A stretch of 64,000 nucleotides of DNA from positions 416,001 through 480,000 of the forward strand of contig JBIJDH010000003.1 in the NCBI GenBank assembly GCA_044344255.1, given 5' to 3'. Shown one piece after another: positions 47,612-64,000 of this stretch. The position numbers and the translations under genes are program-made. This stretch comes from Myxococcota bacterium. GTDB taxonomy: Bacteria; Myxococcota_A; UBA796; UBA2385. Position 1 is the stretch's first letter, and each line of letters starts with the position of its first letter. Below the pieces are notes generated by a model, which saw only the letters and a program-made list of their open reading frames with translations, searched no databases and was not told the DNA's origin.

Positions 47612-47663
47612 CCCTCCGCCCAGCCCCGGTCGCCGTGGGCTACGCTCGCCCACGGGAGCGCCG

Positions 47664-47918
47664 ATGACCCTGGAACAGCCCAAGAACCCGCTGCACGGAC
47701 TGACCCTCGCCACCATCGTGGAGACCCTGGTGGCCCACTACGGATGGGAGGAGCTCGGCCGGCAGGTGCGGATCCAGTGCTTCACGAACGAGCCGAGCGT
47801 CACTTCCAGCTTGAAGTTCTTACGAAAGACCCCATGGGCGCGGGAGAAGGTGGAGAGCTTCTACCTCTGGCACACCCGTGAGCAGCGGCGGCTGGCGCGC
47901 GCGCAGCCGGCGGAGTGA
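47664..47918 (+). CDS. VF530/DUF2132 family DNA-binding protein
   Basis: [22 protein letters not shown]...[23 protein letters not shown]. Confidence 0.92.
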
Positions 47919-47921
47919 CCC

Positions 47922-48578: not shown

Positions 48579-48605
48579 CCGCGGTCCGTCACTCCCCGGT
48601 GAGCC

Positions 48606-50240
48606 TCAGTCCCAGGAGAGGGTCAGGGTCTCGCCGGGCGCGGCGGCCTCCGCCTCGGCCACGCTCCCGTCGGGCCAGGTGACGGTGAAGCTGTCGATCT
48701 GTTGGGCGGCGCCCACGCCGAAGTAGAGCTCGGGGGCGTTGGAGCCGAAGGTCACCGAGGGCAGCATCCACTGGGTCACCCGCCGCTCGCCGATCTGGGC
48801 CTCGACCTTGGCGCCGATCGCCGTCCGGTTCAAGCCCTTCCCCTCGAGGAGCACGCGCACGCCGGCGCCGCAGCCGCCCCCGGTGCGCCACTGGCGCATG
48901 AAGTACTTGCCGGCGGTGAGGAGGTCGGGGGTGCCGTCTCGGTCAAAGTCGCCGACCGCGAGGCCGCGCTTACGCTCGCCGTCGTTCCAGCCCACTTCCG
49001 GCCGCTCGAAGGTGCCCGAGGCGGTGCCGGTGAGCAGGACGTCGTACTGGACCTCACCGTCCTCCATGCCCGCCGTGCCGTCCACTGAGCCGATGAGCTC
49101 GGGCTGGCCGAGCTGGCCGTAGACGGTGGCGATGTCCATGTAGCTGTCCTGGTTGATGTCGAGGAAGGTGGTCGACCAGGAGGTGAGGCTCGTGGGCTCC
49201 GGCGGGATGTCGGCGCCGAGCGCGAGGGTGGCGTCGGCGAAGGTGCCGTCACCGAGGTTGATCTGGAGCTTCGCGCCTCCGATGTTCGTGCTGTAGAGGT
49301 CTGGCAGGCCGTCTTCGTTGGCGTCGCCCACCGCGGCGCCCATCGCGTACTGCACGAGCTCACAGGCGCAGTCGGCGTCGCGGGTGAAGTGGGCGGTCCC
49401 GTCGTTGCGCAGCATGCGGTTGGGCTGGATGTACGGCCCCCAGTCATGGGCGAGGTAGATGTCGAGGTCGCCATCGAGATCGTAGTCGATGGGGGAGCCC
49501 TGGAAGGTCCAGCCGAACATGTCCTCGGGCGGAGCCTGGTCGGTGGCGTCGGCGTAGGCGCCGTCGGGCTGGCGGAGGAAGAGCTGGTCTCCCTCGCCGC
49601 TCGTGACCGTGCCGTCGGCCACCGCGGCGCCATCGGAGTCGGTGACCGTGGCGCCCACGAAGAGGTCGAGGTCGAGGTCACCGTCGAAGTCCGCGAAGGC
49701 GCCCGTCATGGTGGCCTTGGTCGCGTTCGGCAGGGTGACGCTCGTGAAGTGGCCGTCGCCGTCGTTCGTGAGGATCTCGGCCAACCACCCGCGGTCGCGG
49801 CCGAGGTAGAGGTCGAGGTCTCCGTCCGCGTCGAGGTCGGCCAAGGCGGCGCTCTGCGCGCTCGGCAGGGGGCCTCCGTTGTCGGTCATCGAGGGGTCGA
49901 GGATGAGGTCGCCGTCGCCGTCGTTGCGGAGGCCGATGGCGCCTCCGCCGTAGGCGAGGACGGCGTCGAGCCAGCCGTCGCCGTCCACGTCGCCCACCGC
50001 GATGCCCTGCTGCGTGTGGCGGTGGTCGTACAGGATCGGCAGCACCTCCTGCGGGAAGTCGTTCTGCAGGGTCATCGTGGTGGGGGTGCAGACGCGCGGT
50101 TCGCCTACGCTGGTGTCGCTGCCGCCGCCGTCTTCACCGCCGGAGTCTGGCGGGCCGTCGCCGCCATCGGCGCCCTTGCCGAGGTCGGAGGGGCCGGCGC
50201 AGGCGAGCAGCAGGAGGGTGACCGGGGTGAGGCGGGCCAT
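48606..50240 (-). CDS. CRTAC1-like lipoprotein (FG-GAP repeats plus ASPIC/UnbV domain), copy 1
   Basis: LLLLAC lipobox; repeated GD[VLF]DGDG.LD; C-terminal NRTAIGAKV...LYFG...VTWPDG. Confidence 0.88.
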   Translation of the reverse strand: MARLTPVTLLLLACAGPSDLGKGADGGDGPPDSGGEDGGGSDTSVGEPRVCTPTTMTLQNDFPQEVLPILYDHRHTQQGIAVGDVDGDGWLDAVLAYGGGAIGLRNDGDGDLILDPSMTDNGGPLPSAQSAALADLDADGDLDLYLGRDRGWLAEILTNDGDGHFTSVTLPNATKATMTGAFADFDGDLDLDLFVGATVTDSDGAAVADGTVTSGEGDQLFLRQPDGAYADATDQAPPEDMFGWTFQGSPIDYDLDGDLDIYLAHDWGPYIQPNRMLRNDGTAHFTRDADCACELVQYAMGAAVGDANEDGLPDLYSTNIGGAKLQINLGDGTFADATLALGADIPPEPTSLTSWSTTFLDINQDSYMDIATVYGQLGQPELIGSVDGTAGMEDGEVQYDVLLTGTASGTFERPEVGWNDGERKRGLAVGDFDRDGTPDLLTAGKYFMRQWRTGGGCGAGVRVLLEGKGLNRTAIGAKVEAQIGERRVTQWMLPSVTFGSNAPELYFGVGAAQQIDSFTVTWPDGSVAEAEAAAPGETLTLSWD

Positions 50241-50247
50241 GGGGGGG

Positions 50248-50347
50248 ACAATACCCGAGTCGAGGGCGGGTTGGACCTCGTCCCGCTGGGTCAAGCCGAT
50301 TGTCATGTGAAGGTCAAGTTCGGGTCAAGTCGAGGTACTATCCCCCG
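50248..50347. promoter_or_regulatory. Divergent promoter region with -10-like hexamers next to both start codons and three GGTCAAG direct repeats
   Basis: TATTGT-C7-ATG (minus) and TACTAT-CCCCCG-ATG (plus); GGTCAAG at 50289, 50312 and 50323. Confidence 0.55.
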
Positions 50348-52006
50348 ATGTGGACCGACCTCCGCGCCTCGCTTCGCCGTTATCCCCTCGGGCTGGGCTG
50401 GCTGTGCCTCGGATGTGCACCCGAGGCGGTGGGGGTGGCCCCTACGGCGGGGGACTCTGGGGGGCCTGACTCCGCCGTCGAGGCGACCTGTGGGGAGGTG
50501 CGCTTCTCCGTCGTACAGGCCTGGGAAGAGGCTGACTTGCCGACCTGGGACCCCGGTGATCGGATCTCTCCGGGCGTCGCCATCGCCGACCTGGACGGCG
50601 ACGGGTGGCCCGACCTCCTCATGGCCTACGGTCGCGGGTCGATGATCCTCCTCAATGACGGGACGGGCCGCTTCGTCCCGGGCCCCACCGACGTGCTCTC
50701 GGGCGGCCCCTTGCCGGGGGCGGGCTCTGTGGCCACCGCCGACCTCGACGGCGACGGGGATGAGGACGCCTGGCTCGGCCGCCGAGACGGGCCTGACCTC
50801 CTCCTCTTCAACGAGGGCCCGAACAGCTGCGGCGGCGGCGAAAGTGGAAGAGACAGCAACAGCGGCCTCCGCTTCCGCGCGGTGGAGGTCGAGGAGAGCG
50901 ATCACAAGCCTTGGACGGGCAGCTTCGGCGATCTCGACCTCGACGGCGATCTCGACCTCATCGTCGGCACCTTTGCCGCAGACTTTGATCCCGCCGCCAT
51001 CATCACCACCGGTGCCACCGGCGCCGGCATGGCGGTCCACCTCCAGACCGAGCCGGGCGTGCTGCACAAGCTCCCCGGTGCCATCCCGGAGGAGGCCCTG
51101 GCCTCCCTCAACCTCCAGCCCACCCTGCTCGACGCCGACCAGGACGGCGACCTCGACGTCTACCTCGCCAATGACTTCGGCCCCTACGTGGTGCCCAACC
51201 GGCTGCTGCTCAACGACGGCACGGGGCGCTTTACCCGCGCGCCCGACTGTGCCTGTGAGCTCTCGATGTTCGCGATGGGCGCCGGCACGGGCGACGCGAA
51301 CGGGGATGGCCTCCCCGACCTCTTCATCTCCAACGTCGGCATGCCCGCCCTGCTGCTCGGCCTCGGAGACGGCAGCTTCTACGACGCCACGCTGGCCTCC
51401 GGCGCCGCGATCCCGCCCACCGCGTCGAACATGACCTCCTGGGGCACCGCCTTCGCCGACATGACGCTCGACGGCTGCGAAGACCTGCTCATCGGCTACG
51501 GCAACCTCAGCGAGTCCTTTGACGTCTCGACCTTGGAGACCGCGGGGGCGGACTGGGAGGACGGGCCGGCCCAGAACGACGTGCTGCTCCGCGGCGACTG
51601 CGAGGGCGGCTTCGAGCGGTGGGATGAGGCCGGCTTCACCGAGCCGGGCCGCTCCCGGGCCCTCGCGGTGGGTGACCTCAACCGAGATGGGCGCCCCGAC
51701 ATCGTCACCGTGGGCAAACACTTCCTCCATGTCTGGATGGCCGAGGGGGGCTGCCCCGCCTTGCGCCTCCGCCTCGACGGGGGGCCCGGCAACCGCCCCG
51801 GCATCGGGGCGAGGGTGCAGGCCTGGTCGGAGGGGAGGCCACAGACCAAGTGGATGCTGCCCGCCACCACCGCCTCCTCCTCCCAGGCCGAGCTCTACTT
51901 CTCGAGCCGGAGCGTCTTCGAGCGAATCGAGGTGACCTGGCCGGGTGGCGCGGTGAGCGAGGTGTCGGATGTGCCGCCAGGCGACGAGCTGCGGATGGTT
52001 CGGTGA
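50348..52006 (+). CDS. CRTAC1-like lipoprotein (FG-GAP repeats plus ASPIC/UnbV domain), copy 2
   Basis: LCLGC lipobox; repeated DLDGDG; NRPGIGARV...ELYF...VTWPGG; clear paralog of copy 1. Confidence 0.88.
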   Translation: MWTDLRASLRRYPLGLGWLCLGCAPEAVGVAPTAGDSGGPDSAVEATCGEVRFSVVQAWEEADLPTWDPGDRISPGVAIADLDGDGWPDLLMAYGRGSMILLNDGTGRFVPGPTDVLSGGPLPGAGSVATADLDGDGDEDAWLGRRDGPDLLLFNEGPNSCGGGESGRDSNSGLRFRAVEVEESDHKPWTGSFGDLDLDGDLDLIVGTFAADFDPAAIITTGATGAGMAVHLQTEPGVLHKLPGAIPEEALASLNLQPTLLDADQDGDLDVYLANDFGPYVVPNRLLLNDGTGRFTRAPDCACELSMFAMGAGTGDANGDGLPDLFISNVGMPALLLGLGDGSFYDATLASGAAIPPTASNMTSWGTAFADMTLDGCEDLLIGYGNLSESFDVSTLETAGADWEDGPAQNDVLLRGDCEGGFERWDEAGFTEPGRSRALAVGDLNRDGRPDIVTVGKHFLHVWMAEGGCPALRLRLDGGPGNRPGIGARVQAWSEGRPQTKWMLPATTASSSQAELYFSSRSVFERIEVTWPGGAVSEVSDVPPGDELRMVR

Positions 52007-52036
52007 GCCCCTCCGCTGAGGACCGAGCCACGGCCC

Positions 52037-52057
52037 GGGGTCAGGGGTCAGGGGTCA
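52037..52057. repeat. 7-bp tandem repeat, 3 copies
   Basis: (GGGGTCA)x3; gives TGA in all three minus-strand frames. Confidence 0.85.
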
Positions 52058-52270
52058 GGGCTGAGCCCGGTCGAGCAGGACCTGGCCGCGGAGGCGTGAC
52101 CAGTCGGGCGTGGGCCAGCGGTCCAGGAGGCCCAACAGCAGGAGCTGCCCGACGAAGAGGACGATCGCGGCGGTGAACAGCAAATCGGGGGCGCTCCAGT
52201 CGCTGCCGACCTCGCCGCTGGAGCGGGCGCTCTGGGCGCGGGGCGGGCGTGGGCGCTTGGCGCGGCTCAT
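52055..52270 (-). CDS. Single-TM microprotein X (module A)
   Basis: 71 aa; DLLFTAAIVLFVGQLLLLGLL; resembles 58689-58844. Confidence 0.55.
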   Translation of the reverse strand: MSRAKRPRPPRAQSARSSGEVGSDWSAPDLLFTAAIVLFVGQLLLLGLLDRWPTPDWSRLRGQVLLDRAQP

Positions 52271-52304
52271 GGGGGTCCTCCAACGAGCGGTTATCCTACC
52301 CCCG

Positions 52305-52631
52305 ATGGCGCTCCGTAGTCGCTCCGCCCCTGACCACGCCCGGACGCTGCTCCTGCTCTGCAGCGCCGTGTTGTTGGGCCTCACCGCGGCCCGGCTCCTC
52401 TACCGGCCCGCGGCGAGCGAGGGCGCAGAGGACCTCCTCCGCCTGCTCGACCAGGACGGTGACGGGGGCCTCAGCCCGGCCGAGTACGCGCGGGTGGCGG
52501 GGGATGAGCTGCCCTTCCAGATCCTCGACCTTGACCGCAGCGGCGCCCTCGAGGCGCAGGAGGTCGACGCCGCGGTCGAGTGGATCTCACCGCTCCGGGC
52601 CTCGCTCTCCTTCGTCGCCCGGGTGCGCTGA
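52305..52631 (+). CDS. Membrane-anchored two-EF-hand protein (module A)
   Basis: N-terminal TM; DQDGDGGLSPAE and DLDRSGALEAQE loops. Confidence 0.8.
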   Translation: MALRSRSAPDHARTLLLLCSAVLLGLTAARLLYRPAASEGAEDLLRLLDQDGDGGLSPAEYARVAGDELPFQILDLDRSGALEAQEVDAAVEWISPLRASLSFVARVR

Positions 52632-52840
52632 TGGCCCTGTCCGCCTCGTCCTCCCGCTGGGCCCTGCCCCTGCTCCTGCTCGCCAACGCGCTCCTGTCGG
52701 GGATGCTCGTCGATCGGACGCTGCGCCTCCGAGATGGCTGGGCGGTCTATCGGATGCGCGTGCAGGCCGCCGAGGCCCTCCGCCGGCTGCCTCCCGCGCC
52801 CGGCGGCCCCGGAGCGGCGCCGCAAGGAGCGAGGCGGTGA
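52631..52840 (+). CDS. Single-TM microprotein Y (module A)
   Basis: 69 aa; TGATG and GTGA overlaps with both neighbours; resembles 58474-58692. Confidence 0.6.
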   Translation: MALSASSSRWALPLLLLANALLSGMLVDRTLRLRDGWAVYRMRVQAAEALRRLPPAPGGPGAAPQGARR

Positions 52841-54297
52841 CCGGCGCCCTGCTGCTGCTCCTCGTGTCGGCGGCCTCGGCGAGCACAGTGGCCTCGGCGG
52901 CCCCCAACCTCGTGCTCATCAGCGTCGACGGCCTCCGCGCCGACCGGGTGGGGCCGCGGGGAGGCCGGCCGAGCGTCACCCCCGCGATCGACCGCCTCGC
53001 CGCGCAGGGCCTCGTCTGCGAGGTCGCCCTCAGCCAGTCGAACGAGAGCCTGTTCTCTCACGCCGCCCTGTTGACCGGGCGGCCGGTCTCCGAGCTCGGC
53101 CGCCCCGACTATCGGCGCTTCACCGTACCCCCGAGCGCGATGCTGCTGCCGGAGATCCTGGCCCTCTACGGATATTCGAGTGGCGCGTTCGTCGCCGGCG
53201 GGCACGTCAAGGGGGTGTATGGCTTCGACCAGGGCTTCTCGGTCTACGCCGATGAGGACGACTTCGGTAGCTTCTTTCACACCGTCCCGCCGGCCCTGGA
53301 GTGGCTCCGGCGTACGGCGCGGGCCCCCTTCTTCCTCTTCTTACACGGCTACGACACTCACCGGCCCTATCAGCACGCCGGCTTCTTCGATCATGTCTGG
53401 GACGCCGACTACACAGGCGACATCGACACCCTGTCGGGGCGCTCCGAGGTGGAGCGGATCTTCGACGGGGTTTATTACCCCGATTTCCCAGTCGAATATT
53501 TTTGGCATGGCGGCGCCGCTGAGCAGATCCTCGATCCCAGCGGCTACGCGCGCCTCGCCGCCTGGGCCGCCGAGCACCCCGGTAGGCCGCTCAGCGACGC
53601 CGATCAGGCCCACCTGCTCGCCCACTACGACACCGGCGCGCTTTCGGCCGACGTTCATGTCGGGCGCTTCGTCGAGGCCCTGAAGGCCCGGGGCCTCTGG
53701 CAGGACACGCTCCTCCTGCTCACGGCCGATCACGGCGAGGACCTCGGTGAGCACGGCTTCTTCAACCACCGCTCCGCCCTCCTCGACAGCACCACCCGGG
53801 TGCCCCTGATCCTCGCCGGCGGCGCCCTCCCGGCGGCCCTCCGCGGTCAGCGGCTCCCGGGACCCTGCTCGGCCCTCGACGTCGTCCCCACCTTGCTCGC
53901 CGCGGCCGGGGCCACGCCCCCCGCCGGTCTTGCAGGGCAGGACCTCCTTCACGATCCGGTGCCCACGGCGGTGATCGTGCAGGAGGGCGTGCTGCCGATG
54001 ATGGCCGTCCGCACCCCCACCCACCGCCTTGTCGTGCAGGGGATCCCCCTCGACACCCCCCTGCTCGAGACCCTCGTGCGCGCCGCCCCGATCGAGGCGC
54101 CTACCTTCCGCCTCTATGACCTGCGGACCGACCCCGAGGAGCAGGTTGATCAGCTCTCCGCGCAGCGCCCCGTGGCCCTCGAGCTCCGAGCGGCGCTGCT
54201 CCGATGGCTGGCGGCCCGCGCGCGCTCGAGCCACGAGGGCGGCCAGCCGGTCGATGCGGCCTTCCAGGAGGTCCTCCGCTCGCGGGGCTACTGGTAG
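52837..54297 (+). CDS. Sulfatase-like (alkaline phosphatase superfamily) exported enzyme (module A)
   Basis: PNLVLISVDGLRAD, SNESLFSHAALLTG, PFFLFLHGYDTH.PY, ADHGE, RVPLI, LYDLRTDPEE. Confidence 0.88.
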   Translation: MTGALLLLLVSAASASTVASAAPNLVLISVDGLRADRVGPRGGRPSVTPAIDRLAAQGLVCEVALSQSNESLFSHAALLTGRPVSELGRPDYRRFTVPPSAMLLPEILALYGYSSGAFVAGGHVKGVYGFDQGFSVYADEDDFGSFFHTVPPALEWLRRTARAPFFLFLHGYDTHRPYQHAGFFDHVWDADYTGDIDTLSGRSEVERIFDGVYYPDFPVEYFWHGGAAEQILDPSGYARLAAWAAEHPGRPLSDADQAHLLAHYDTGALSADVHVGRFVEALKARGLWQDTLLLLTADHGEDLGEHGFFNHRSALLDSTTRVPLILAGGALPAALRGQRLPGPCSALDVVPTLLAAAGATPPAGLAGQDLLHDPVPTAVIVQEGVLPMMAVRTPTHRLVVQGIPLDTPLLETLVRAAPIEAPTFRLYDLRTDPEEQVDQLSAQRPVALELRAALLRWLAARARSSHEGGQPVDAAFQEVLRSRGYW

Positions 54298-54438
54298 TTC
54301 GCGAGGGGGGGAGCGGCCGGCCTCGCGCGGGGTGTCCGGAAACGGTCACCGGGCCGCCGGAATTGACCATCGGCCCGGGCCTTCGCGACCGATAGGCTTG
54401 GAGGGACACCCGCTCCGTCGCCCTGTCTGGAGGCGCCC

Positions 54439-55275
54439 GTGACGTCCCTTCGAAGCTGGCGCCTCGTCGGTCGGGGACAGCCCCCGCTGCCCGGCGGGCT
54501 CGCCGCCCTCGCCCTCTCCGGGGCGCTGCTGGCCGTCTCGCGCCCGGCGGCCGCCGCCGAGGGGCCGCTCACCCGCTCTCTCGACCTCGCGGTCCGCACC
54601 GACGTGCCCGTGCTGGTGGGCGCCGCGGTCACCTGGGAGGGGCCGGCGCGCCTGCGGGGTAGGCTGACGGCGGGCACGATGCCGGGCCCCTATGTAGACC
54701 TCACCAACGCCGCGATGACCGGCTTCGACATCTACAGCGACACGGTGGCCGACATCATCGATCACGCGCTCCGGCGCTCGATCGTGCTCCGGGTCGAGGG
54801 TGGCTTTCGGCCGCTCCCCCGGCGAGGGCTCACCCTCGGCGTGGGCTATCAGCTCCTCACGCTCGGCGGCGACTCGGCCGATCTGAGCCTCTTTGGTGAG
54901 GCCTCGGACCCTGTGCTCGTCGAGCGGGCGCGCTCGCTCACCGGTGACCTCGAGGTGGGCATCACTGATCACATGCTCACCGGAGAGGTCGGCTACGAGT
55001 GGCCGATCCGCGAACACCTGCTCATCGGGACCTCCCTCGGCTTCGCCTACACCGTGTCGGCGGACAGCCGGGTGAGCCCGACGCGGGAGGCGGACGGGCC
55101 GCTCGAGCAGGAGGTCATCGACGCCGCCACGGCCTCCACCGCGGACTATCTCACCTATGTCTTTGAGGAGTGGGTCCACCTGCCGATGATCGGTGTGTCC
55201 GTGGGCTGGCGCTTCAAGCCCCATAGGTCTACGGATGAACAGTCTTTGTCTGAACAGAAGGGGGGCGGACGATGA
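54439..55275 (+). CDS. Hypothetical exported protein, possible outer-membrane beta-barrel
   Basis: Signal peptide; alternating beta-strands; GVSVGWRF near the C-terminus. Confidence 0.55.
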   Translation: MTSLRSWRLVGRGQPPLPGGLAALALSGALLAVSRPAAAAEGPLTRSLDLAVRTDVPVLVGAAVTWEGPARLRGRLTAGTMPGPYVDLTNAAMTGFDIYSDTVADIIDHALRRSIVLRVEGGFRPLPRRGLTLGVGYQLLTLGGDSADLSLFGEASDPVLVERARSLTGDLEVGITDHMLTGEVGYEWPIREHLLIGTSLGFAYTVSADSRVSPTREADGPLEQEVIDAATASTADYLTYVFEEWVHLPMIGVSVGWRFKPHRSTDEQSLSEQKGGGR

Positions 55276-55688
55276 CTCGCGCACGGTTCTTCGACCGAGG
55301 TCGAACGGCCCCGCCTCAGCGGAGGAGCCTCGGGCTGGGGGGGGCGCTCTGGGCGCTCTCCGGCCTGTGGGCGGGCTGCGACAAGCCCGCTCCCGACGAG
55401 TTCGCCGAGGAGTTCCCCGCCCACCTCTGCGACTGGGTCGAGACCTGCGCCACCGGTGGGGAGGGCGACCTCGGCCCGGCCGAGGATGCCTATGACTGTG
55501 AGGGGGAGGCTCTGGACTTCGTTGAGCAGGCCGAGGGCGACACGCGCTGCGCCTACGACGCGGGGCAGGCGCGGCAGTGTCTCGAGGCCTTGGAGGGGGC
55601 CTGTGAGGAGCGGACGGCCATTTATTATGAGTGCAAGCGAGTGTATCGGGGCGACGAGTGCCCGAACGACCTCTCGACGCTCCTCTGA
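55272..55688 (+). CDS. Cys-rich lipoprotein
   Basis: WAGC lipobox; eight further Cys; ATGA overlap. Confidence 0.65.
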   Translation: MTRARFFDRGRTAPPQRRSLGLGGALWALSGLWAGCDKPAPDEFAEEFPAHLCDWVETCATGGEGDLGPAEDAYDCEGEALDFVEQAEGDTRCAYDAGQARQCLEALEGACEERTAIYYECKRVYRGDECPNDLSTLL

Positions 55689-55703
55689 GCGGTGGGTGCC
55701 TGA

Positions 55704-57233
55704 ATGACGGAGCGAATGACCGAGCCCGTCGGGACCGCCCCCGCGGCCCCGCTCTTGAAGGGCCCCGTGCCGGAGCTCCCACCGGGGCCGACGTCTCTCC
55801 CCGTCCCGACCCCAGCCCGGGTTGGCGCGGCGATCCTCGGCCGGCTGCTCGTCTTGCTGGTTCTGCTCGCCGTCACTGCGCCCTTATGGCCGATCTACCT
55901 GCTCTGTCGGCTTGTGCTCGCGCGACCCGCGCAGATCCCGCCGACCTCCTACTTCGCGCGCTGCCTCGGGTCGCTGCTCTTCACGCCGGTGGAGGCCCCC
56001 GCAGGGGCGCCGCAGCTCCGGCCTTGGCATCGCCTCGGCCTCGCCCTGACGCTGCTCCACCGCTGGACGGTCGTGCCGATCGGCGGGCTCGCGCACGCCC
56101 TCGATCGGCTGCTCTACGGGCGGGCCCTCGACGCGGTCCGGGTCGAGGCGCCCCTCTTCGAGCTCAGCGCAGCCCGGAGCGGGAGCACCCAGATCGCGCG
56201 GTATCTCGAGGACGATCCGAGCATCGTTGCGCCCACGGTCCTCCAGATGACCGTCCCCTTCCTGTGGTTCTGGCGGCTCTGGCCGCACACGGTTGGGCGC
56301 TTTGTCTCGATGGAGCGCCTGTCGGCTGTGGTGATGGGCACCTTCTCCGACGGATTTCGGGAGCGACACGAGCTCGACCCGCTCCGCACAGACACCTACG
56401 AGGTCGTCTTTGGCATGGGATACCACATGGATCTGCTCCGCTGCCTCGGCGTGCGGCCCTTCGTCGAGGGCTTCTCCCCGGCCCAGATCCACGCGGCGGG
56501 GCGATGTATGTGGCTGGAGGGGGCCTTGCCCTTCATCGACCAGGTCGGTCGGCTCGCCCTGCTCCAGGCCACCCTCGAGGGCCGAGCGGGCGGTGCGCCG
56601 CTCCAACTGATGGTGAAGGGGCACTTCCTGGCGATCGCCGACCCGCTCGAGGCCCGCTACCCGGACGCGCGCTTCCTCACCGTGCTCCGGGCGCCGGCGC
56701 CCCGCCTCCAGAGCCTGATCAACTTTCATTATTTTAATGCGACAGACTCCATCTTTCCTCGCCTCCCCTGGGCCTGGCTCGTGGGCGCCGCGCTCGAGAC
56801 GGAGGTGGACTACTGCGACCGGGAGCTGGCCTGGTTCAGCCGGGCGGGCGGCGCTCGCCGCGTCGTGGTGCGCTTCGAGGACTATGTGCGGGACTTGCCG
56901 GGGACCCTCCGCAGGGTGCATCAGGAGTGCCTCGATCGGTCGGGTGCGCCCACCCACCTCGCGCAAGCGCACAGCGCGCGGCACCGGAGCGGGTATTCGG
57001 TCAACCGCTCGCTGGAGGAGCTTCACATCGACACCGACGCCCTCGCGCTCCGCCTCTCGGCCTATCGGGCGTGGTGTAAGGACCCGCACCCGGGCCGGGG
57101 GCGCGCTTCAGCCGCTGCGAGGGTCGAGGGCGGCGAGCACGCTCTCTTGAATGGCGCGGACCCTCGGGGAGCGCGCCAGGGCCTCCGGGATGACCACCCG
57201 GAGCGGACAGTCCCTGCCGATCAGCTCGGGTAG
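55704..57233 (+). CDS. Membrane-anchored sulfotransferase
   Basis: 5'-PSB-like AARSGSTQIA; VKGHF; YPDARFLTVLR.P...LQS (3'-PB); VRFEDYVRD. Confidence 0.75.
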   Translation: MTERMTEPVGTAPAAPLLKGPVPELPPGPTSLPVPTPARVGAAILGRLLVLLVLLAVTAPLWPIYLLCRLVLARPAQIPPTSYFARCLGSLLFTPVEAPAGAPQLRPWHRLGLALTLLHRWTVVPIGGLAHALDRLLYGRALDAVRVEAPLFELSAARSGSTQIARYLEDDPSIVAPTVLQMTVPFLWFWRLWPHTVGRFVSMERLSAVVMGTFSDGFRERHELDPLRTDTYEVVFGMGYHMDLLRCLGVRPFVEGFSPAQIHAAGRCMWLEGALPFIDQVGRLALLQATLEGRAGGAPLQLMVKGHFLAIADPLEARYPDARFLTVLRAPAPRLQSLINFHYFNATDSIFPRLPWAWLVGAALETEVDYCDRELAWFSRAGGARRVVVRFEDYVRDLPGTLRRVHQECLDRSGAPTHLAQAHSARHRSGYSVNRSLEELHIDTDALALRLSAYRAWCKDPHPGRGRASAAARVEGGEHALLNGADPRGARQGLRDDHPERTVPADQLG

Positions 57234-57998
57234 GACGGCGACGACGGCGTCGTCGGGGTGTCCGGGGTCAGGGAGCAGGGCGTCGGGGACGAAGGCCAGG
57301 CCCAGATCGGCGAGCACGAGCTGGCGCAGCATGTGCACGTCCGGCGAGACCGCGACCGGCCGCACCTCGACGCCGTGGCCGTCGAGGGTGGGCCAGCGAT
57401 GCGGATCCACGCCGGGGCCGGACCAGGAGAAGAGCTCGTGTTGGTGCAGATCGGCGAGGGAGCTCGGGCAGCCCCGCGCTTGGAGATAGGCGGCGGAGCC
57501 GATGAGCCGCTCGCGCATCGGGAGGACCACCCGGGTCACGTAGGGGCCGAGCGGCGCCTTCGCTCCAAAAAGGAAGGCGATGTCACTGCCATCCTCGAGG
57601 GCCTCCGTGGGATCGGCGAAGGTGCGCGCCTCGATCTTCACCTCCGGGAAGCTGCTCCGCATGGCGATGAAGACCGGCAGCATGGCGTGCGGCGCCAGCC
57701 CCGCCGGCAGGGCCACCCGGAGCAGCCCGCCGCGCCCGCCGCCCACCTCGCGGGCGGTGGCGATCAGGGCCTGGCTCTCCTGGAGGATGCGCCGTCCGCG
57801 GGACTCGATGAGCTGGCCCGCCTCGGTGAGGGTGGCGCCCTGGGCACCTCGGACCAGCAGGGGCGCGCCGATTCGCCCCTCAAGGTCGTCCAACCGGCGG
57901 CGGAGCGTGCTGCGGGGGAGGCCGAGGGTGTCGGCGGCGGCGAGGAGCGAGCCGGTGTCGGCCACCGCCAGGAAGGCGCGGAGCTCATTCATGTCCAT
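57108..57998 (-). CDS. LysR family transcriptional regulator
   Basis: LRAFLAVADTGSLLAAA..LG...STL.RRL..LE..IGAPLL.R...LTEAG. Confidence 0.93.
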   Translation of the reverse strand: MDMNELRAFLAVADTGSLLAAADTLGLPRSTLRRRLDDLEGRIGAPLLVRGAQGATLTEAGQLIESRGRRILQESQALIATAREVGGGRGGLLRVALPAGLAPHAMLPVFIAMRSSFPEVKIEARTFADPTEALEDGSDIAFLFGAKAPLGPYVTRVVLPMRERLIGSAAYLQARGCPSSLADLHQHELFSWSGPGVDPHRWPTLDGHGVEVRPVAVSPDVHMLRQLVLADLGLAFVPDALLPDPGHPDDAVVAVLPELIGRDCPLRVVIPEALARSPRVRAIQESVLAALDPRSG

Positions 57999-58431
57999 TC
58001 GGCGTCTCCGATTTTCCCTCACCGGGAGGTGGGGCTGGGGCGCTCTCTCCGTCCAGGGTCTCGCCCAGGACGGAGAGCGTGCGGGCATAGGCTTCGATCA
58101 ATGCCTGGACCGCGGCGCCGTCGGGGCGGGGATCGGAGGAGGCGGCGCGGCGCAGGGCGTCGTCGGGGAGCTCGGGGGCGCGGCCGAGGCGCTCGGCGGC
58201 CCGTCGGACCCTTCGTTCGAGGAGGGTGTCCAGCGCGATGACCGCGCGGACATCGGCGTCATCGGGGGGAGGCTCCCCGGCCTGGAGCACCACGGCGGCG
58301 GGGCCGGGCAGGGGAGGCAGCGCCTCGGGCGGGCCCGGGAGGTGCCAAAGCCAGAGGAGCAGTCCGGTCTGCACGAGCAGCAGCGCGGCGGCGATGAGGC
58401 TGAGCCGGTGTTCCCGCTGGCGCGTCCGCAT
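57985..58431 (-). CDS. Hypothetical single-TM protein
   Basis: LSLIAAALLLVQTGLLLWLW followed by a helical domain; overlaps the LysR start. Confidence 0.55.
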   Translation of the reverse strand: MRTRQREHRLSLIAAALLLVQTGLLLWLWHLPGPPEALPPLPGPAAVVLQAGEPPPDDADVRAVIALDTLLERRVRRAAERLGRAPELPDDALRRAASSDPRPDGAAVQALIEAYARTLSVLGETLDGESAPAPPPGEGKSETPNGHE

Positions 58432-58473
58432 CCAGATTGGATACCATGGTCGTCCCCCCCTCGGGAGCCCCCC

Positions 58474-58692
58474 TTGTCCCAGCCCCTGCCGGAGTCGAGG
58501 CGGCGCGTCCTGGCCCTCCTCCTGGTCTGTGACGCCGTCCTCGCGCTGATGATCGCCGTTCGGTTCGTCGAGCTCCGGGCGGAGTGGACCGCCTGGAACA
58601 CCGTGGTGACGGCCCAAGCCACCCTGATCCAGAGGGCGGACACCTCGGTCGACCCGACGAGCCGCCCGCCGCCCAGGGGGCTCGGCCGATGA
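58474..58692 (+). CDS. Single-TM microprotein Y' (module B)
   Basis: TTG start with GGGAG RBS; LALLLVCDAVLALMIAVRFVELRAEW aligns with microprotein Y. Confidence 0.6.
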   Translation: MSQPLPESRRRVLALLLVCDAVLALMIAVRFVELRAEWTAWNTVVTAQATLIQRADTSVDPTSRPPPRGLGR

Positions 58693-58844
58693 GCCGCGCG
58701 GAGCTGCTCTTCGCCACCGCCCTGCTGGTGATCAACCTGATCGTGGTGGAGTGGGTCGTCTATGCGCTCGCCACCGGGCAGCTGGGCTCCCAGGTCGATG
58801 AGCGGGACCTCGATCCCGCCCGGGTTGTGGATCGCCAGCCTTAA
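58689..58844 (+). CDS. Single-TM microprotein X' (module B)
   Basis: 51 aa; ATGA overlap; ELLFATALLVINLIVV aligns with microprotein X. Confidence 0.6.
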   Translation: MSRAELLFATALLVINLIVVEWVVYALATGQLGSQVDERDLDPARVVDRQP

Positions 58845-58877
58845 ACGGCGCCCCCTCGACGCCGCCCCTTCGTGCGC

Positions 58878-59171
58878 TCAGGCCGGTGGGGTCTCGACCC
58901 ACTCGGGGTCGACGCGGGTGAGCAGCACCTCGAGCTCGAACGGGCTGAGGAGACCGTCCCGGTCGGCGTCAAAGAGCTCAAAGTCGCTGGGGTAACGCGC
59001 GCTCCGGGCGAACTCCGTGGGGGAGATCTGCCCGTCGCCGTCCTGGTCGAAGCGCTGCACCCAGGGAGCCACGAGCGCGGGCTCGCGGGGTTCGGGATCC
59101 CAGGCGAGGCGCGCGAGGGCCGACAGCAGCAGGGCGAGCGCGAGCCCGTAGAGGAGGCGGCTCAGCTTCAT
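58878..59171 (-). CDS. Membrane-anchored two-EF-hand protein (module B)
   Basis: N-terminal TM; DQDGDGQISPTE and DADRDGLLSPFE loops. Confidence 0.85.
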   Translation of the reverse strand: MKLSRLLYGLALALLLSALARLAWDPEPREPALVAPWVQRFDQDGDGQISPTEFARSARYPSDFELFDADRDGLLSPFELEVLLTRVDPEWVETPPA

Positions 59172-60544
59172 GGGGCGCGCTCTCGCGGCGGATGGGCGGG
59201 CCGGAGGGCCTCCCAGAGCCCCTCCCCGCGCGGGTCATCCCAGGCGATGGGCTGTCCGGCGGCGTCGAGGAGCTCCATCCCGGCACCGGCCTCGACTGGG
59301 CGAGGGCCGAGGAGGGCGACGTCTGGCGCGCGGAGGCGGGCCGACGGCGTGCGGACGCTCCGCTCACCCAGCATCGACTCCGAGCGGACACGCTCTCGCC
59401 CGAGGGCCTCGAGCCCCGGCCCCTGGGTGGCCCCGACCAGGGAGAGCAAGGCGGGGCTCAGATCGGCGAGGCTCACGAGCTCACTTCGCTGGACGGGGGC
59501 CGCGCCGGGCAGCCGGATGACCAGGGGGACGTGGACGTTCTCGTCGTGCAGCGAGACGCGGTGGTTCACCGCTCCGTGGGTGAGCAGGTCTTCTCCGTGG
59601 TCGGAGAGGAGCACGACGACCGTGTCCTCGTCGAGGTCGAGCCGATCGATCTCGCGGAGCACGCGGCCGACGTGGAAGTCGGCGTAGGCCACCGCGCTGT
59701 CGTACACCCCGCGGACGAAGGCCCGATCGGCGTCATCGATGGGGATGCGGGCCGAGCGGGGGTCCGCCGCGTGGAGCTCGAGGGCGTGAAACATCGCCGG
59801 GTTGAGGAAGTGGGCGTCGGTGGACTGGAGCGGGGGCGGGTTGAAGCCGGGGAACCAGGCGTCGTTCGTCAGGCGCTCCCAGAAGAGGGGGTTCTCGGCC
59901 TCCTCCTTTAAGGGGCCGCTGTAGTCCGGGGCGGCGAAGTGGCGGAGGGGCCCCGGCTTGGCGTAGGGAGAGTGGCAGTCGTAGCCGTGGATGAAGAGGA
60001 AGAAGGGGCGATCGTCGTCGGCGAGGTCTCTCAGGCGGTCGATGGCCGCAGGTGCGGTCTCTTGAAAGCTGGCGAAGGGGCGCTGGCTCGTCTGATAGCG
60101 CTGAAAGCCGGCGTCAATGCCAAAGACCGGCGAGAGGTGCCCGCCGGCGACCACCCCCTCGGTTCGCCAACCGGCGCGGGCGAGGCGGGCGGCGAGGGTC
60201 GGGGCGTCACGGCTCAGCCGGAAGGTGCGGTAGTCGAGGGGGCCCCAGGTGGAGGGCAAGGCGCCGAGGAAGAGGCCCGCGTGGCTGAACAGGGTCTCAT
60301 TGGCGGCGCTGTAGGCCTGGGACCACATGATCGACTCGGCGGCGAAGGCGTCCATCTCCGGGGTGAGCGAGCGACCGTCGGGGCCCGCCTTGCCGAGGCG
60401 GTCCGCCCGCATCGTGTCGACCGAGATCATCACGAGGTTGAGCCCTGGCCCGCCGTCGCCGGCTCCGGGTTGGGCGCAGGCGGCCGCGAGTCCGGCGAGG
60501 AGGGCGGGCAGGAGGGGCGCCCCTCGAGGCGGGAGGCCGCGCAC
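59168..60544 (-). CDS. Sulfatase-like (alkaline phosphatase superfamily) lipoprotein (module B)
   Basis: LAAAC lipobox; NLVMISVDTMRAD, ANETLFSHAGLFLG, PFFLFIHGYDCH.PY, SDHGE, HVPLV. Confidence 0.88.
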   Translation of the reverse strand: MRGLPPRGAPLLPALLAGLAAACAQPGAGDGGPGLNLVMISVDTMRADRLGKAGPDGRSLTPEMDAFAAESIMWSQAYSAANETLFSHAGLFLGALPSTWGPLDYRTFRLSRDAPTLAARLARAGWRTEGVVAGGHLSPVFGIDAGFQRYQTSQRPFASFQETAPAAIDRLRDLADDDRPFFLFIHGYDCHSPYAKPGPLRHFAAPDYSGPLKEEAENPLFWERLTNDAWFPGFNPPPLQSTDAHFLNPAMFHALELHAADPRSARIPIDDADRAFVRGVYDSAVAYADFHVGRVLREIDRLDLDEDTVVVLLSDHGEDLLTHGAVNHRVSLHDENVHVPLVIRLPGAAPVQRSELVSLADLSPALLSLVGATQGPGLEALGRERVRSESMLGERSVRTPSARLRAPDVALLGPRPVEAGAGMELLDAAGQPIAWDDPRGEGLWEALRPAHPPRERAP

Positions 60545-60561
60545 GCCGGGGGCGCCGCGCT

Positions 60562-62070
60562 CTACTTGGCGGCCATCGCTTGATCTTCAGCAGAGCCCTT
60601 GCTGAGCAGGTCCTTCAGCATCCACAAGGTCGGCTTCTTCTCGTTGAAGAAGAGGAAGCTGAACAGGCTGCCGGCCTGGACATACTTCGCGACGTCGCGC
60701 CAGGTCTTGATCTGCTCGGCGTGGCGGGCCAGCGTGACCGGCCGGAAGTAGAACTCGCGGTAGAACTGACGGTGGAGCTGGATGAGGTCGTCCGGCTCCA
60801 GGCCCCAGGGCACGAAGGTGGGCTCCCAGAAGCTCTTCTCGTTGTTCGTCTGGTTGACGAGCCGGCCCCACTTGCTGCCCTCGCGCAGCCAGGTCTCCAT
60901 CTGCGGGGTCTCGGGCAGGATGGTGTTGATCTGCACGGTCACGTCATGCAGCGGCAGGGACTTGGCGAACTCCATCGTCTCGAGGATGGTCTCGCGGGTG
61001 TCGGGCATGTGGCCGACCATGAAGAAGGCCTTCGGGCGCAGGCCGACCTCGTGCGCCGCGGTGATGGCGGCGCGGATCTTCTCCTTGGTGATGCCCTTGG
61101 AGATGAAGTCGAGCACCTGATCGGAGCCGGACTCGACGCCGAAGCGGGTGCGCCAACAGCCGGCGTCCTTCATCCGCTGAAGGAGCTCGCGATCGACGAC
61201 CTCGACGCGGGAGGAGCAGGTCCAGCTTATCTTGTTCTGGATGCCGCGACGGATGAACTCGTCGCAGATCGCCTGGACGCGCTTCTTGTTGGCGCAGAAG
61301 AGGGAGTCTACGAACGCGATGTCCTTGGCGCCGAAGTCGCGGATGAGGTGCTCGACCTCGTCAGCGATGTACTGCGGCGAGTGGCTGCGGTAGCCCGAGC
61401 GTGACTTCTGGCAGAAGGCGCAGGCGTGGGGGCAGCCACGGCTCGTGATCATCGCGAACTTGGGGAAGGCGTGCTCGTCGACCGGGACCGGCCGGTAGAT
61501 GTTCGGCGGGAGGAGGTGCCGGGCGGGGAAGGGCAGCTCGTCGAGCTCGCGGAACTTCTTGCGCTTCTCGGTGTAGTGGAAGCCGCCCTCCGGCTTACGG
61601 AAGACGATCCCCGGTACGTCCTCGAGTGCCTGGCGGCCTGCGGCCCACTCGACGAGCTCGAGCATCGTGTGTTCGCCTTCACCGAGCACGCCGACATCGA
61701 AGGCCGGGTGGGCCATCGCCTCTTCGGGGACCAGCGTGACGTGGTAGCTCCCGAGCACGATCTGCACGTCGGGCAGCGCGGCCTTGAGGCCGGTCGCCAG
61801 CTTCTTGCAGGTCTCGAAGGTCACCGTGAAGGAGCCGAGGCCGATGAGGTCTGGCTTCCAGGCCTCCACCCGAGCGACGGTCTTCTGCACGTTGAGCTGC
61901 TCGGCTGCGGCGTCGATGACGGCGACCTCGTGGCCCTCCCGCTCGAGCATGGCGGCGATGTAGAGGATGCCGAGCGGCGCCGAGTTGTAGAAGAGGAAGG
62001 AGGTGACCGGGTTGGCGTGCCCCTCTTCGAGGACCTGGTCGATGGGGGGATTGATCAGGATGACGCGCAT
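60562..62070 (-). CDS. Cobalamin-dependent radical SAM enzyme
   Basis: N-terminal B12-binding domain (PLGILYIAA, VLGEGE); SRGCPHACAFC; FGVESG. Confidence 0.93.
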   Translation of the reverse strand: MRVILINPPIDQVLEEGHANPVTSFLFYNSAPLGILYIAAMLEREGHEVAVIDAAAEQLNVQKTVARVEAWKPDLIGLGSFTVTFETCKKLATGLKAALPDVQIVLGSYHVTLVPEEAMAHPAFDVGVLGEGEHTMLELVEWAAGRQALEDVPGIVFRKPEGGFHYTEKRKKFRELDELPFPARHLLPPNIYRPVPVDEHAFPKFAMITSRGCPHACAFCQKSRSGYRSHSPQYIADEVEHLIRDFGAKDIAFVDSLFCANKKRVQAICDEFIRRGIQNKISWTCSSRVEVVDRELLQRMKDAGCWRTRFGVESGSDQVLDFISKGITKEKIRAAITAAHEVGLRPKAFFMVGHMPDTRETILETMEFAKSLPLHDVTVQINTILPETPQMETWLREGSKWGRLVNQTNNEKSFWEPTFVPWGLEPDDLIQLHRQFYREFYFRPVTLARHAEQIKTWRDVAKYVQAGSLFSFLFFNEKKPTLWMLKDLLSKGSAEDQAMAAK

Positions 62071-62190
62071 CGGGGCCGCTCCGGAGCTGATGGGGCAGAG
62101 GTTACCCCAGTCTCGGCGGTGTGCCCACGGATCGCCGCCGCCCCGGTGGAGGGGGTTAGCGGGGTCGCCCACCCCTCGACTGGAGCCCAG

Positions 62191-63003
62191 ATGCCGCCCC
62201 GCACTCCGCCTTCAAGCGTCCTCCCGCCTCGTCAGCGCGGGAGGCACCACCTCATCACCGGTGCCGGCTCGGGCATCGGGCGCGCGGTCGCGCTCCGCCT
62301 TGCGGCCGAGGGGGCCAGCGTGAGCCTGCTCGGGCGCAACCGCGACAAGCTCGACGCTGTCGCCATCGAGGCCATCGACGCCGGGGCCGCCCTCGCGCAC
62401 GTCGTCGTCGCCGATCTCACCGACGCCCGCGCGGTCGGCGAGGCCGTGGCAGAGGCCGCCGACGCCCTTGGTCCCTTGGACGGCCTCGTGGCCAACGCGG
62501 GCCAGGGTGGGCCGAATTTCCCGGGCGAGGGAGACCGCTTCTTCGAGATCGTGCAGACCAACCTCGTCGGCACCTACAACAGCCTTCGGGCGGCCCAGCG
62601 GCACTTCGCCCCGGGCCCGGAGGCCCGCCACATGGTCGTCGTGGCCAGCATCCTCGGGCGCTTCGGCGTGCCGTGGTACACCGGCTACTGCGCCTCCAAG
62701 GCGGCCCTGCTCGGCCTCGTGCGGGCGATGGCCCTCGAGCTCGCTCGCGAGAACGTGGCCGTCAACGCCATCTGCCCCGGCTGGGTGGAGACGGACATGG
62801 CGTGGGAGGGCATCGACGGTATGGCCGCCGCCATGAAGACCGACCGGGCGACCGCGCTGCAGGCGGCGATGAGCCAGGTGCCCCTGGGTCGGATGAGCCA
62901 GCCCGAAGACATCGGCGGCCTCGTGGCCTGGCTCCTCTCGAACGACGCCCGCGGCGTGACTGGCCAGGGCATCGACATGAACAACGGCGCGTGGATGGGC
63001 TGA
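62191..63003 (+). CDS. Short-chain dehydrogenase/reductase
   Basis: TGAGSGIG, ANAG, YCASK, NAICPG. Confidence 0.95.
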   Translation: MPPRTPPSSVLPPRQRGRHHLITGAGSGIGRAVALRLAAEGASVSLLGRNRDKLDAVAIEAIDAGAALAHVVVADLTDARAVGEAVAEAADALGPLDGLVANAGQGGPNFPGEGDRFFEIVQTNLVGTYNSLRAAQRHFAPGPEARHMVVVASILGRFGVPWYTGYCASKAALLGLVRAMALELARENVAVNAICPGWVETDMAWEGIDGMAAAMKTDRATALQAAMSQVPLGRMSQPEDIGGLVAWLLSNDARGVTGQGIDMNNGAWMG

Positions 63004-63047
63004 GGGTCGGGGCTCGCCCACCCTCCGGCTCGGCGGCCGCGCCCGGG

Positions 63048-63842
63048 TCAGGCGGAGAAGTGGGCGGCCTCTTCTAGCTGCTTCGGATCGCGGATGACCA
63101 GCCCCTCACGCTGGGTCTCGACGAGGCCCTCGCGCTGCCAGCGGGTCATGACGCGGATGGTCGTCTCGACGCGGCAGCCGACCATCTCGGAGAGATCCGA
63201 GCGGGAGAGCCGCACGGGGACGAAGGTGCCGCGCGCGTCCTTGAGGCCGACCTCATCGCCGATGCGCAGGATGACGCGGGCCAGACGGTTCTCCACCGGG
63301 CCGTGGGACATCTCGTTGATGCGCTGGCTGAAGGTGTCGAAGCGGCGGCAAGCCTGCTCGAACAGCGTGGCGCATAGCTCAGGATGTTCTTGGATCAAGA
63401 TCCGAAGCCGGTCTGCGGGGAGGCGGATGCCCTTGCCCGAAGAGAGCGCCGTGCAGGTCGCGAACCGGAACGCGTGGTCAGGGCTCCGGGCAGCCTCCTC
63501 TCCGGCGAGCCCGCCGCGGAAGACGATCTCCAAGATGGTGTCGCGGTTGTCCGCGCCCGCGCGGGAGAGCTTCACGACCCCGGTGCAGACGGTGATGAGC
63601 TCGGTCGCCGCCGCGCCCTCCGCCCACAAGACATCGCCGCGTGCGAAGCGGAAGGGTTCACCGTGGTGCATCAGGGCGCTGTTCACGGACGCCGACGAGC
63701 AGGGGCGGGAGCAGGCGCAGCCCACTTGCGTCGCCGCGGGGCCCGCCTGCACGGGACAGATGGTGGAGATGGTGCAGGTCTGGGAGGGGGATTGAAGGGT
63801 CATCGTGGCGTCCGGCTCCGAGCGGGGTGGAGTGTCCGTCAC
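63048..63842 (-). CDS. Crp/Fnr family regulator with Cys-rich N-terminus (alternative start ATG 63803)
   Basis: cNMP-fold GVVKL...GEE; HTH LSRSDLSEMVGCRVETTIR; N-terminal C..C..CAC..C. Confidence 0.9.
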   Translation of the reverse strand: MTDTPPRSEPDATMTLQSPSQTCTISTICPVQAGPAATQVGCACSRPCSSASVNSALMHHGEPFRFARGDVLWAEGAAATELITVCTGVVKLSRAGADNRDTILEIVFRGGLAGEEAARSPDHAFRFATCTALSSGKGIRLPADRLRILIQEHPELCATLFEQACRRFDTFSQRINEMSHGPVENRLARVILRIGDEVGLKDARGTFVPVRLSRSDLSEMVGCRVETTIRVMTRWQREGLVETQREGLVIRDPKQLEEAAHFSA

Positions 63843-63861
63843 TGCAAACTGCGTGCCAGGA

Positions 63862-63873
63862 TGACCAAGGTCA
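63862..63873. promoter_or_regulatory. Palindrome with Crp/Fnr core TGA-N6-TCA just upstream of the Crp/Fnr gene
   Basis: TGACC-AA-GGTCA. Confidence 0.4.
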
Positions 63874-64000
63874 GGATGGCCCGATCGACCGGGGCCGGGA
63901 ATTGCGTGCGGCTGGGTTCCCGGGGCGCCTGCGCCCAGCTTACGTGTGAGATGCCACAGGGCCGAGGAGCTGCAAGATGAAAGAGCGTGCCACCATTTTG

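Follow-up and report, generated by a model that had tools for sequence, protein, structure and literature searches.

Phosphoform transferases such as EptA, MCR-1, BcsG and LtaS are extracytoplasmic enzymes that combine an alkaline-phosphatase-superfamily fold and an unmodified Ser or Thr nucleophile with a fused polytopic N-terminal membrane domain (structures 5fgn and 9nww are listed as integral membrane), and nucleophilic Ser or Thr without modification is known in this superfamily from enzymes of phosphoryl transfer. YejM/PbgA (LapC) likewise has a sulfatase-like domain in the periplasm that is attached to the inner membrane. As far as the excerpted sources go, BcsG, MCR-1, EptA, LtaS and PbgA have been grouped by fold (PMC8892547), and PbgA has been described as having five transmembrane (TM) helices but none of the typical catalytic residues (PMC7018646). 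Here, a 64,000-nucleotide stretch of a Myxococcota bacterium genome (contig JBIJDH010000003.1, positions 416,001 to 480,000; hereafter the window) was analyzed, in which nine clustered genes encode two exported sulfatase-fold enzymes (ENZa and ENZb), two membrane-anchored EF-hand proteins (EFa and EFb) and five small single-pass proteins (X, X', Ya, Yb and Z). We tentatively read this cluster, at slightly less than an even chance, as a predicted Ca2+-dependent assembly at the periplasmic side of the inner membrane, which would decorate a surface glycan or glycolipid with a phosphate-ester substituent or strip it off.

The window enzymes share with EptA, MCR-1, BcsG and LtaS the fold (Z 21-29), the predicted unmodified nucleophile and the extracytoplasmic location. 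They differ in that only a signal peptide or lipobox, and no fused polytopic membrane domain, precedes the catalytic domain, the first metal ligand is Asp instead of Glu, the scaffold lies closer to sulfatases, and the partners are EF-hand and single-pass proteins. Compared with PbgA, which has its helices in cis, the predicted site is intact and the helices are encoded by separate genes. The best fold and sequence matches were formylglycine (S1) sulfatases and phosphonate monoester hydrolases, with the first Asp, D-[NH]-G and P-H histidine positions in common, and the nearest clusters by features (0.97) were uncharacterized "sulfatase-like hydrolase/transferase" proteins with T-x-P-S-H from Acidobacteriota, Planctomycetota and Myxococcota. 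Among open-licence papers, searched by title and the start of the abstract, no description of this cluster was found, which agrees with the first-pass annotation, where no described system of this composition was known.

An enzyme and EF-hand core in a lineage-restricted cluster

The enzyme was present in 20 of the 41 genomes first searched, including the window's own genome (G000; G, L and P numbers denote genomes, loci and library proteins, respectively). Across 154 genomes of the order, profile matches were obtained in 57 genomes for the enzyme, 58 for the EF-hand pair (EF), 26 for the Y family and 48 for the Z domain. EF occurred in all 57 enzyme-positive genomes versus 1 of the 97 enzyme-negative ones, and in this single genome (G015) a truncated enzyme match lies at the end of a contig. 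Per-genome counts of the two also tracked each other (Spearman 0.92; at least 237 enzymes versus 233 EF proteins in total, with enzyme counts taken to at most 10 per genome). At the level of loci, 75 of 87 enzymes had an EF gene no farther than 2.2 kb away. Within G000, EF was found beside five of six enzymes of this subfamily versus none of 40 other sulfatase-like open reading frames (ORFs), and only the subfamily combines the N-E-[ST]-x-x-S-H motif with an EF-hand partner; the sixth enzyme has a degenerate-looking partner downstream (judged by eye). Four of the six are additional to ENZa and ENZb, and three of these four adjoin EF and none adjoins Y. A genome-wide search with generic EF-hand Pfam models lacked the sensitivity needed for a control (one match).

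The core of the system is the pair of enzyme and EF-hand protein, with Y, X and Z as accessory parts. The cluster is real, conserved and lineage-restricted; its partners stay together in five families of a single order, and 301 genomes sampled from the phylum gave 18 positives, 17 belonging to this order and the remaining 1 to the same class, all relatives being labelled Myxococcota by their sources. The eight ORFs of the first-pass annotation were confirmed with their coordinates, strands and stop/start overlaps, and all four of its gene types exist, but a fifth type, Z, had been missed. The two modules of differing order that it described proved to be a single nine-gene cluster, ordered X (minus strand), EFa, Ya and ENZa (plus), Z (minus), Yb and X' (plus), and EFb and ENZb (minus). 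The same nine genes occur in identical order in G011 (L038), contiguous and without an insert, and G018 has this order spread over two contigs that end inside the cluster. In the window, the cluster is broken by four genes at 54439-57998, which are missing from that position in both G011 and G018. In other genomes the parts are shuffled, as seen from loci mapped among the relatives.

ENZa and ENZb share 37% identity over 393 amino acids (aa) (tblastn E 3e-52), and both EFa/EFb (z=16.3 versus shuffles) and Ya/Yb (z=7.0, with 0 of 2000 shuffles as good) are homologous pairs, although part of the Y score is transmembrane background since the unrelated pair EFa/Yb gave z=3.6. Paralogy of X and X', claimed in the first pass along with these three pairs, was not borne out by these comparisons, as their alignment is at chance level (z=1.2, p=0.13) and a profile of X matches the X' ORF no better than E 0.32. 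In a quick tree of 87 enzymes (Shimodaira-Hasegawa-like approximate likelihood ratio support only, midpoint root), ENZa and ENZb fell into separate well-supported clades of 23 members each, both spanning several families, and the pairing is therefore old. A recent tandem duplication is ruled out by the 37% identity together with these deep clades, and no long DNA repeat beyond conserved coding motifs was found in a check for one. Duplication and rearrangement of a fixed module of four genes was thus not supported, given the deep enzyme clades, the chance-level X/X' alignment and the patchy distribution of Y.

This distribution bears on whether the functional unit might consist of enzyme and EF-hand protein only, the latter being a split Ca2+-binding domain that stabilizes a periplasmic hydrolase, with Y, X, X' and Z as co-inherited island proteins with a separate job. 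We regard this as rather unlikely, though a serious contender. No Y match was found in 31 of the 57 enzyme-positive genomes, several loci have Y, Z and EF without an enzyme nearby, Z domains occur elsewhere, and the genes are laid out divergently and convergently. Set against this, all 26 Y-positive genomes are enzyme-positive (0 of the 97 enzyme-negative genomes has Y), 35 of the 46 enzymes in the ENZa and ENZb clades have Y no more than 1.5 kb away versus none of 41 others (in a sample enriched for Y loci), and Y-EF, Y-Z/W and EF-Z fusions exist. In an enzyme-independent test on 25 further regions around Y matches, which contained 33 Y genes, another cluster gene lay within 300 nt of 31 of them, the enzyme itself in 18 cases.

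Predicted active sites of ENZa and ENZb

ENZa (52837..54297, plus strand) has a signal peptide followed by an alkaline-phosphatase-superfamily enzyme of sulfatase fold with a predicted Ser71 nucleophile in N-E-[ST]-x-x-S-H. ENZb (enzyme'; 59168..60544, minus strand) has a lipobox-like N-terminus, a predicted Thr nucleophile and the same His/Asp set, lacks the C-terminal GYW helix and belongs to a clade separate from that of ENZa. The ENZa model (predicted local distance difference test (pLDDT) 94.2) matched S1 sulfatases at Z 30-37 (best 37.3, root-mean-square deviation (rmsd) 2.2, 335 aligned), followed at ranks 8 and 11 by the YejM/PbgA periplasmic domain (Z 32.5 and 32.3; rmsd 2.8 and 318 aligned for the former) and further down by LtaP (28.9), EptC (27.5), LtaS (27.2), EptA (26.3), MCR-1 (25.4) and NPPs. 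Ser71 falls on the nucleophile position when aligned to a choline sulfatase. Over 56 sequences this position is Ser in 30 and Thr in 26, with N-E before and x-x-S-H after it, and D31, H123, Y172, D173, H175, D298, H299 and H311 are invariant.

Pfam Sulfatase matches both enzymes above its cut-off (E 6e-31), the relatives carry the source name "arylsulfatase A-like", and genes with FGE-sulfatase domains lie near four loci. These observations would fit ordinary Ser-type formylglycine sulfatases that scavenge sulfate, as the databases name them, which we consider extremely improbable. The formylglycine motif [CS]-x-[PA]-x-R is absent, as the enzymes read S/T-x-(F,Y,L,T,W)-S-H; position +4 is His in 54 and Phe in 2 of the 56 sequences and never Arg, and Pro is never among the five commonest residues at position +2. 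As stated in the excerpted text of PMC5066984, Thr at the nucleophile position, found here in 26 of 56, would not yield formylglycine, and no anaerobic maturase scored above cut-off in G000. The database label "sulfatase" for the two enzymes is a mis-annotation. A separate observation concerns a 337-aa lipoprotein-like ORF (G000:C58:36123-37136) after a subfamily enzyme and EF gene, which keeps the enzyme's C-terminal half and GYW end, lacks the active site and is possibly a dead paralogue subunit.

The same assembly of enzyme and EF-hand protein could instead perform sulfate chemistry, as a formylglycine-independent sulfate-ester hydrolase or sulfotransferase that works through a Ser/Thr-O-sulfate intermediate and edits sulfated surface glycans. 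The top structural matches are sulfatases, sulfotransferases of the PAPS (3'-phosphoadenosine-5'-phosphosulfate) type and arylsulfotransferase-like genes recur near the cluster, and a 45%-identical homologue of the sulfotransferase in the window's insert is found close to the cluster in G003. We nevertheless judge this reading unlikely. Unmodified Ser/Thr nucleophiles of the superfamily speak for phosphoryl transfer, and the two Lys and the Arg of the sulfatase site are replaced by Gly, His and His. The sulfatase motif G-K-x-[WMYNLF]-H is lacking, with G-G-H in its place (G122 in 55 of 56), and the late Lys position aligns to H311 (56 of 56). The sulfatase metal ligands are retained at the first Asp and D-[NHQ]-G (D31, D298 and H299), while the second Asp is Thr or Gly. 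The signature used for this comparison, consisting of Pro/Ala, Arg and two Lys, is that given in the excerpt of PMC5066984.

Residues 248-311 of ENZa matched MCR-1 profile positions 415-478 (E 3e-4 to 0.016). H175 is presumably equivalent to MCR-1 H395, an assignment made by spacing only. If the profile match is ungapped, D298, H299, E301 and H311 fall on D465, H466, E468 and H478 of MCR-1 and reproduce its D-H-G-E-x9-H metal/His motif (465-478); these four are named as MCR-1 active-site residues in the excerpted text of PMC6030107. The residue pattern predicts that both enzymes most likely work like phosphoform transferases, yet they fall outside that family because a fused membrane domain is lacking and scores are far below cut-offs.

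The high rank of the YejM/PbgA domain raises a further alternative, that the enzyme serves as a non-catalytic or secondary domain for ligand binding within a Ca2+- or envelope-sensing membrane complex with small partners, in the manner of YejM/PbgA. EF is also found fused to NMT1-type binding proteins, and SPFH (HflK/C-like) genes lie near some Y loci. Nine putative metal or catalytic residues are, however, invariant or nearly so in the 56 sequences, whereas the typical ones are lacking in PbgA according to the excerpt of PMC7018646, and the LapC NCBIfam profile gave 31.6 bits on the enzyme versus a cut-off of 825. A sensing role is accordingly very improbable.

EF-hand partners and predicted complex formation

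EFa (EF; 52305..52631, plus strand) consists of an N-terminal TM helix and two EF-hand loops, D49-E60 and D75-E86, and EFb (EF'; 58878..59171, minus strand) likewise of an N-terminal TM helix and two EF-hands. Pfam EF-hand_5/EF-hand_1 matched the EF proteins above cut-off. Both loops follow the 12-residue pattern D-x-[DN]-x-[DNS]-G-x-[ILV]-x-x-x-E, and their end positions are conserved in 50 homologues (D49 in 50, E60 in 48, D75 in 49 and E86 in 50); the loops are canonical and predicted to bind Ca2+. Small exported EF-hand proteins are also known in lanmodulin (LanM) and EfhP. The window proteins differ from these in having two loops only, in being membrane-anchored and in always standing beside or fused to the enzyme, and the LanM profile matched EF weakly (23 bits versus a cut-off of 135).

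Fusions place the EF pair N-terminal to the enzyme in L053, L055 and P0252, and seven loci and seven library proteins have it N-terminal to a Z domain. Y is fused to EF in L048 and to a Z/W-type domain in L128 and L130. By crude patterns, a TM anchor is present in 41 of the 47 EF proteins near Y, and 24 of the 41 away from Y are of lipobox type. Because of these fusions and this difference in anchoring, the simplest form of the system would appear to be enzyme plus lipoprotein EF(-Z), with the window form splitting the parts and re-anchoring them on single helices. Complex prediction of the enzyme with soluble EF scored 0.57 versus 0.00 for the best of three controls, with a partner pLDDT of at least 70 and runs that agreed in at least 86% of contacts. 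Of 157 solved pairs, 116 attained the mark applied, as did 2 of 215 mismatched pairs; 18 of the 157 and both mismatches did so at 0.60 or under, so that the prediction lends weak support to a physical complex. The functional membrane complex proposed in the first pass is consistent with this for the enzyme and EF, and with the fusions and the retention of partners across families. In a separate set of loci (L040:4048-5442, L046:2579-4015 and L050:9202-10542), the same EF pair is fused to the C-terminus of an NMT1-type substrate-binding lipoprotein encoded next to a subfamily enzyme.

Small single-pass proteins

Each small protein contains one hydrophobic 19-mer by hydropathy, and none of X, X', Ya, Yb and Z received a family name from Pfam or NCBIfam. 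X (52055..52270, minus strand; 71 aa) has a single TM helix with a central Gln followed by a Pro-rich stub and is, judged from its sequence, a TM-only short form of Z. Z (57985..58431, minus strand; 148 aa) has a single TM helix, a Pro-rich linker and a three-helix domain of about 65 aa from an unnamed family; in relatives, Z is directly convergent on ENZa. Ya (Y; 52631..52840, plus strand; 69 aa) is a single-TM member of an unnamed family in which Arg29 is invariant and Leu16, Leu33 and Trp37 are nearly so, and Yb (Y'; 58474..58692, plus strand) is a second member, whose TTG start is uncertain. X' (58689..58844, plus strand; 51 aa, single TM) is conserved in G003, G011 and G018 and forms a small family of its own, with four members among the first loci; by eye, it resembles the TM portion of "W" proteins, which combine a TM helix with a Z-type domain.

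In all 12 same-genus comparisons, dN/dS for Y, X, X' and Z was 0.11-0.51; the two enzymes gave 0.12-0.17 and EF 0.25-0.28 in the same test. Three more distant pairs between the window and G003 gave 0.64, 0.69 and 1.20, the last being X, whose N-terminal half lacks conservation. Because of the hydrophobic segment in each and the same-genus dN/dS values, the small ORFs are most likely real genes, judged by conservation and purifying selection, as the first-pass annotation had supposed of its microproteins. Three RNA runs aligned to 47000-64000 yielded a few short pieces and were uninformative for the cluster genes.

Y matched 18 library clusters of similar length, and a weak search of 8000 longer candidates revealed no further member. 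The Z domain was modeled as three helices (pLDDT 88); its best fold match (Z 5.9, rmsd 3.6, 71 aligned) did not stand above unrelated rows, and no usable Atlas match was obtained. It is carried by 164 library representatives, many of them TM-anchored with two or three repeats. Six single-pass library proteins (P0022, P0027, P0039, P0041, P0067 and P0074) have two or three tandem Z domains joined by Pro/Gly-rich linkers and no Pfam family.

Proposed mechanism and evidence against it

In the phosphate-ester reading that we favor, each enzyme would bind an EF-hand pair as a subunit, and Ca2+ would fold or activate the enzyme. A metal held by D31, D298 and H299 would then activate Ser71 (Thr in ENZb) for attack on a phosphoester, and the resulting covalent intermediate would be released to an acceptor or to water with the aid of H123, H175 and H311, as in EptA/MCR/LtaS-type enzymes. 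In the ENZa and ENZb clades, the TM helix of EF would take the place of the lipid anchor, and Y together with the X, Z and X' helices could bundle with it and hold the enzymes at the membrane, where ENZa and ENZb may act as a pair or in sequence. A bolder version, which we find doubtful, is a "deconstructed" EptA/LtaS-type transferase whose membrane domain would be supplied in trans by the single-pass bundle (EF, Y, X/Z and X'/W). Its conserved polar residues (Y Arg29 and Trp37, central Asn/Gln) would present a lipid-linked donor or acceptor to ENZa and ENZb, with the EF-hand subunit as Ca2+ switch. If true, this would be a new multi-subunit, calcium-gated way to decorate the bacterial envelope.

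Several observations weigh against the phosphate-ester assembly. The subunits are transcribed from both strands, which is unusual for a stoichiometric complex, and in G002 the small genes and the enzymes are on separate contigs. Sulfatases and YejM/PbgA are closer in fold than LtaS, EptA and MCR-1; the matches to MCR profiles are weak and far under cut-off (best 24.8 bits versus 500 for phosphoform-transferase profiles), and the residue correspondence with MCR-1 assumes an alignment without gaps. Ten of the 33 Y genes have no subfamily enzyme within 4 kb, and only two of these are at contig ends. The Z domain also occurs in stand-alone proteins of two or three repeats and in 7 enzyme-negative genomes (41 of the 48 Z-positive genomes are enzyme-positive). 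Several neighboring genes handle sulfate rather than phosphate, and recurrence of the commonest neighbor is weak evidence because it has 21 copies in the own genome. The profiles themselves were built from genes first met beside the enzyme, with thresholds of our own, on genomes that are incomplete, related and not independent.

Ser/Thr-x-x-S-H sulfatase-like proteins are abundant (46 in G000), usually mis-named arylsulfatases and uncharacterized. With its nearly obligate partner of EF-hand type, the unnamed Y and Z-domain families and well-defined key residues, this subfamily provides a testable way into the chemistry of such proteins and, for uncultured Myxococcota, into the control of envelope enzymes by calcium, although the reach is narrow, with nearly all positives of the phylum sample in one order.

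Genomic neighborhood

The 81, 65 and 30 selected neighbors, many without any family, included sulfotransferases, arylsulfotransferase-like propellers, MBOAT and SGNH/GDSL proteins and GT2/GT9/GT41, together with a WbuX-like amidotransferase with cysteine desulfurase, B12 radical SAM enzymes, FG-GAP/ASPIC and SPFH proteins. The neighborhood points to envelope glycan decoration, in keeping with the envelope-modifying context suggested by the first-pass annotation, and cannot choose between phosphate and sulfate. The commonest neighbor was an unnamed polytopic family found in 13 of 41 Y loci (some overlapping), with a weak PMT_2 match in 2 of 14 members and no solved structural relative found. 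Its members are about 580 aa long and possibly GT-C, and several of its places in G000 are beside generic sulfatase-like genes.

The insert that breaks the cluster in the window (54439..57998) comprises two unnamed ORFs, a Sulfotransfer_3 protein and a LysR regulator. The two ORFs (54439-55688), which had no Pfam or NCBIfam match, encode proteins of 278 aa, whose end resembles by eye that of an outer-membrane barrel, and of 138 aa, which is rich in Cys and probably a lipoprotein. The Sulfotransfer_3 gene lies at 55704-57233, and its homologue in G003 is about 2 kb from X (L074:1-606). A scan for promoters and terminators gave nothing above shuffles.

On the X side, the cluster is adjoined by two divergent FG-GAP/ASPIC (CRTAC1-like) genes (48606-52006), with homologues beside or inside the cluster in L043, L059, L074, L123, L128 and L130, and a short GGGGTCA tandem repeat of three copies (52037-52061) lies where the FG-GAP gene and X converge. 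On the other side, ENZb is adjoined by a B12-binding radical SAM protein (60562-62070), of which a 68%-identical homologue is near Y and Z in G047 (L124). A second conserved block of EamA/SPFH (HflK/C-like), T-L-P-S-H sulfatase-like and B12 radical SAM genes was seen at G000:C52:122872-128784, L048:8904-14521 and L121:6016-11669, and in G039 and G050 a Y gene follows the T-L-P-S-H sulfatase-like gene of this block. L106:2912-6463, L107, L110 and L127 share an operon of X, Y, cysteine desulfurase and WbuX-like amidotransferases with an arylsulfotransferase-like propeller upstream, which suggests sulfur insertion into a surface sugar. Finally, a gyrase-B-like ATPase/DNA_gyraseB protein fused to a methyltransferase domain recurs near EF, Y or Z (L123:9468-11417, L125:7349-9265, L124 and L129).

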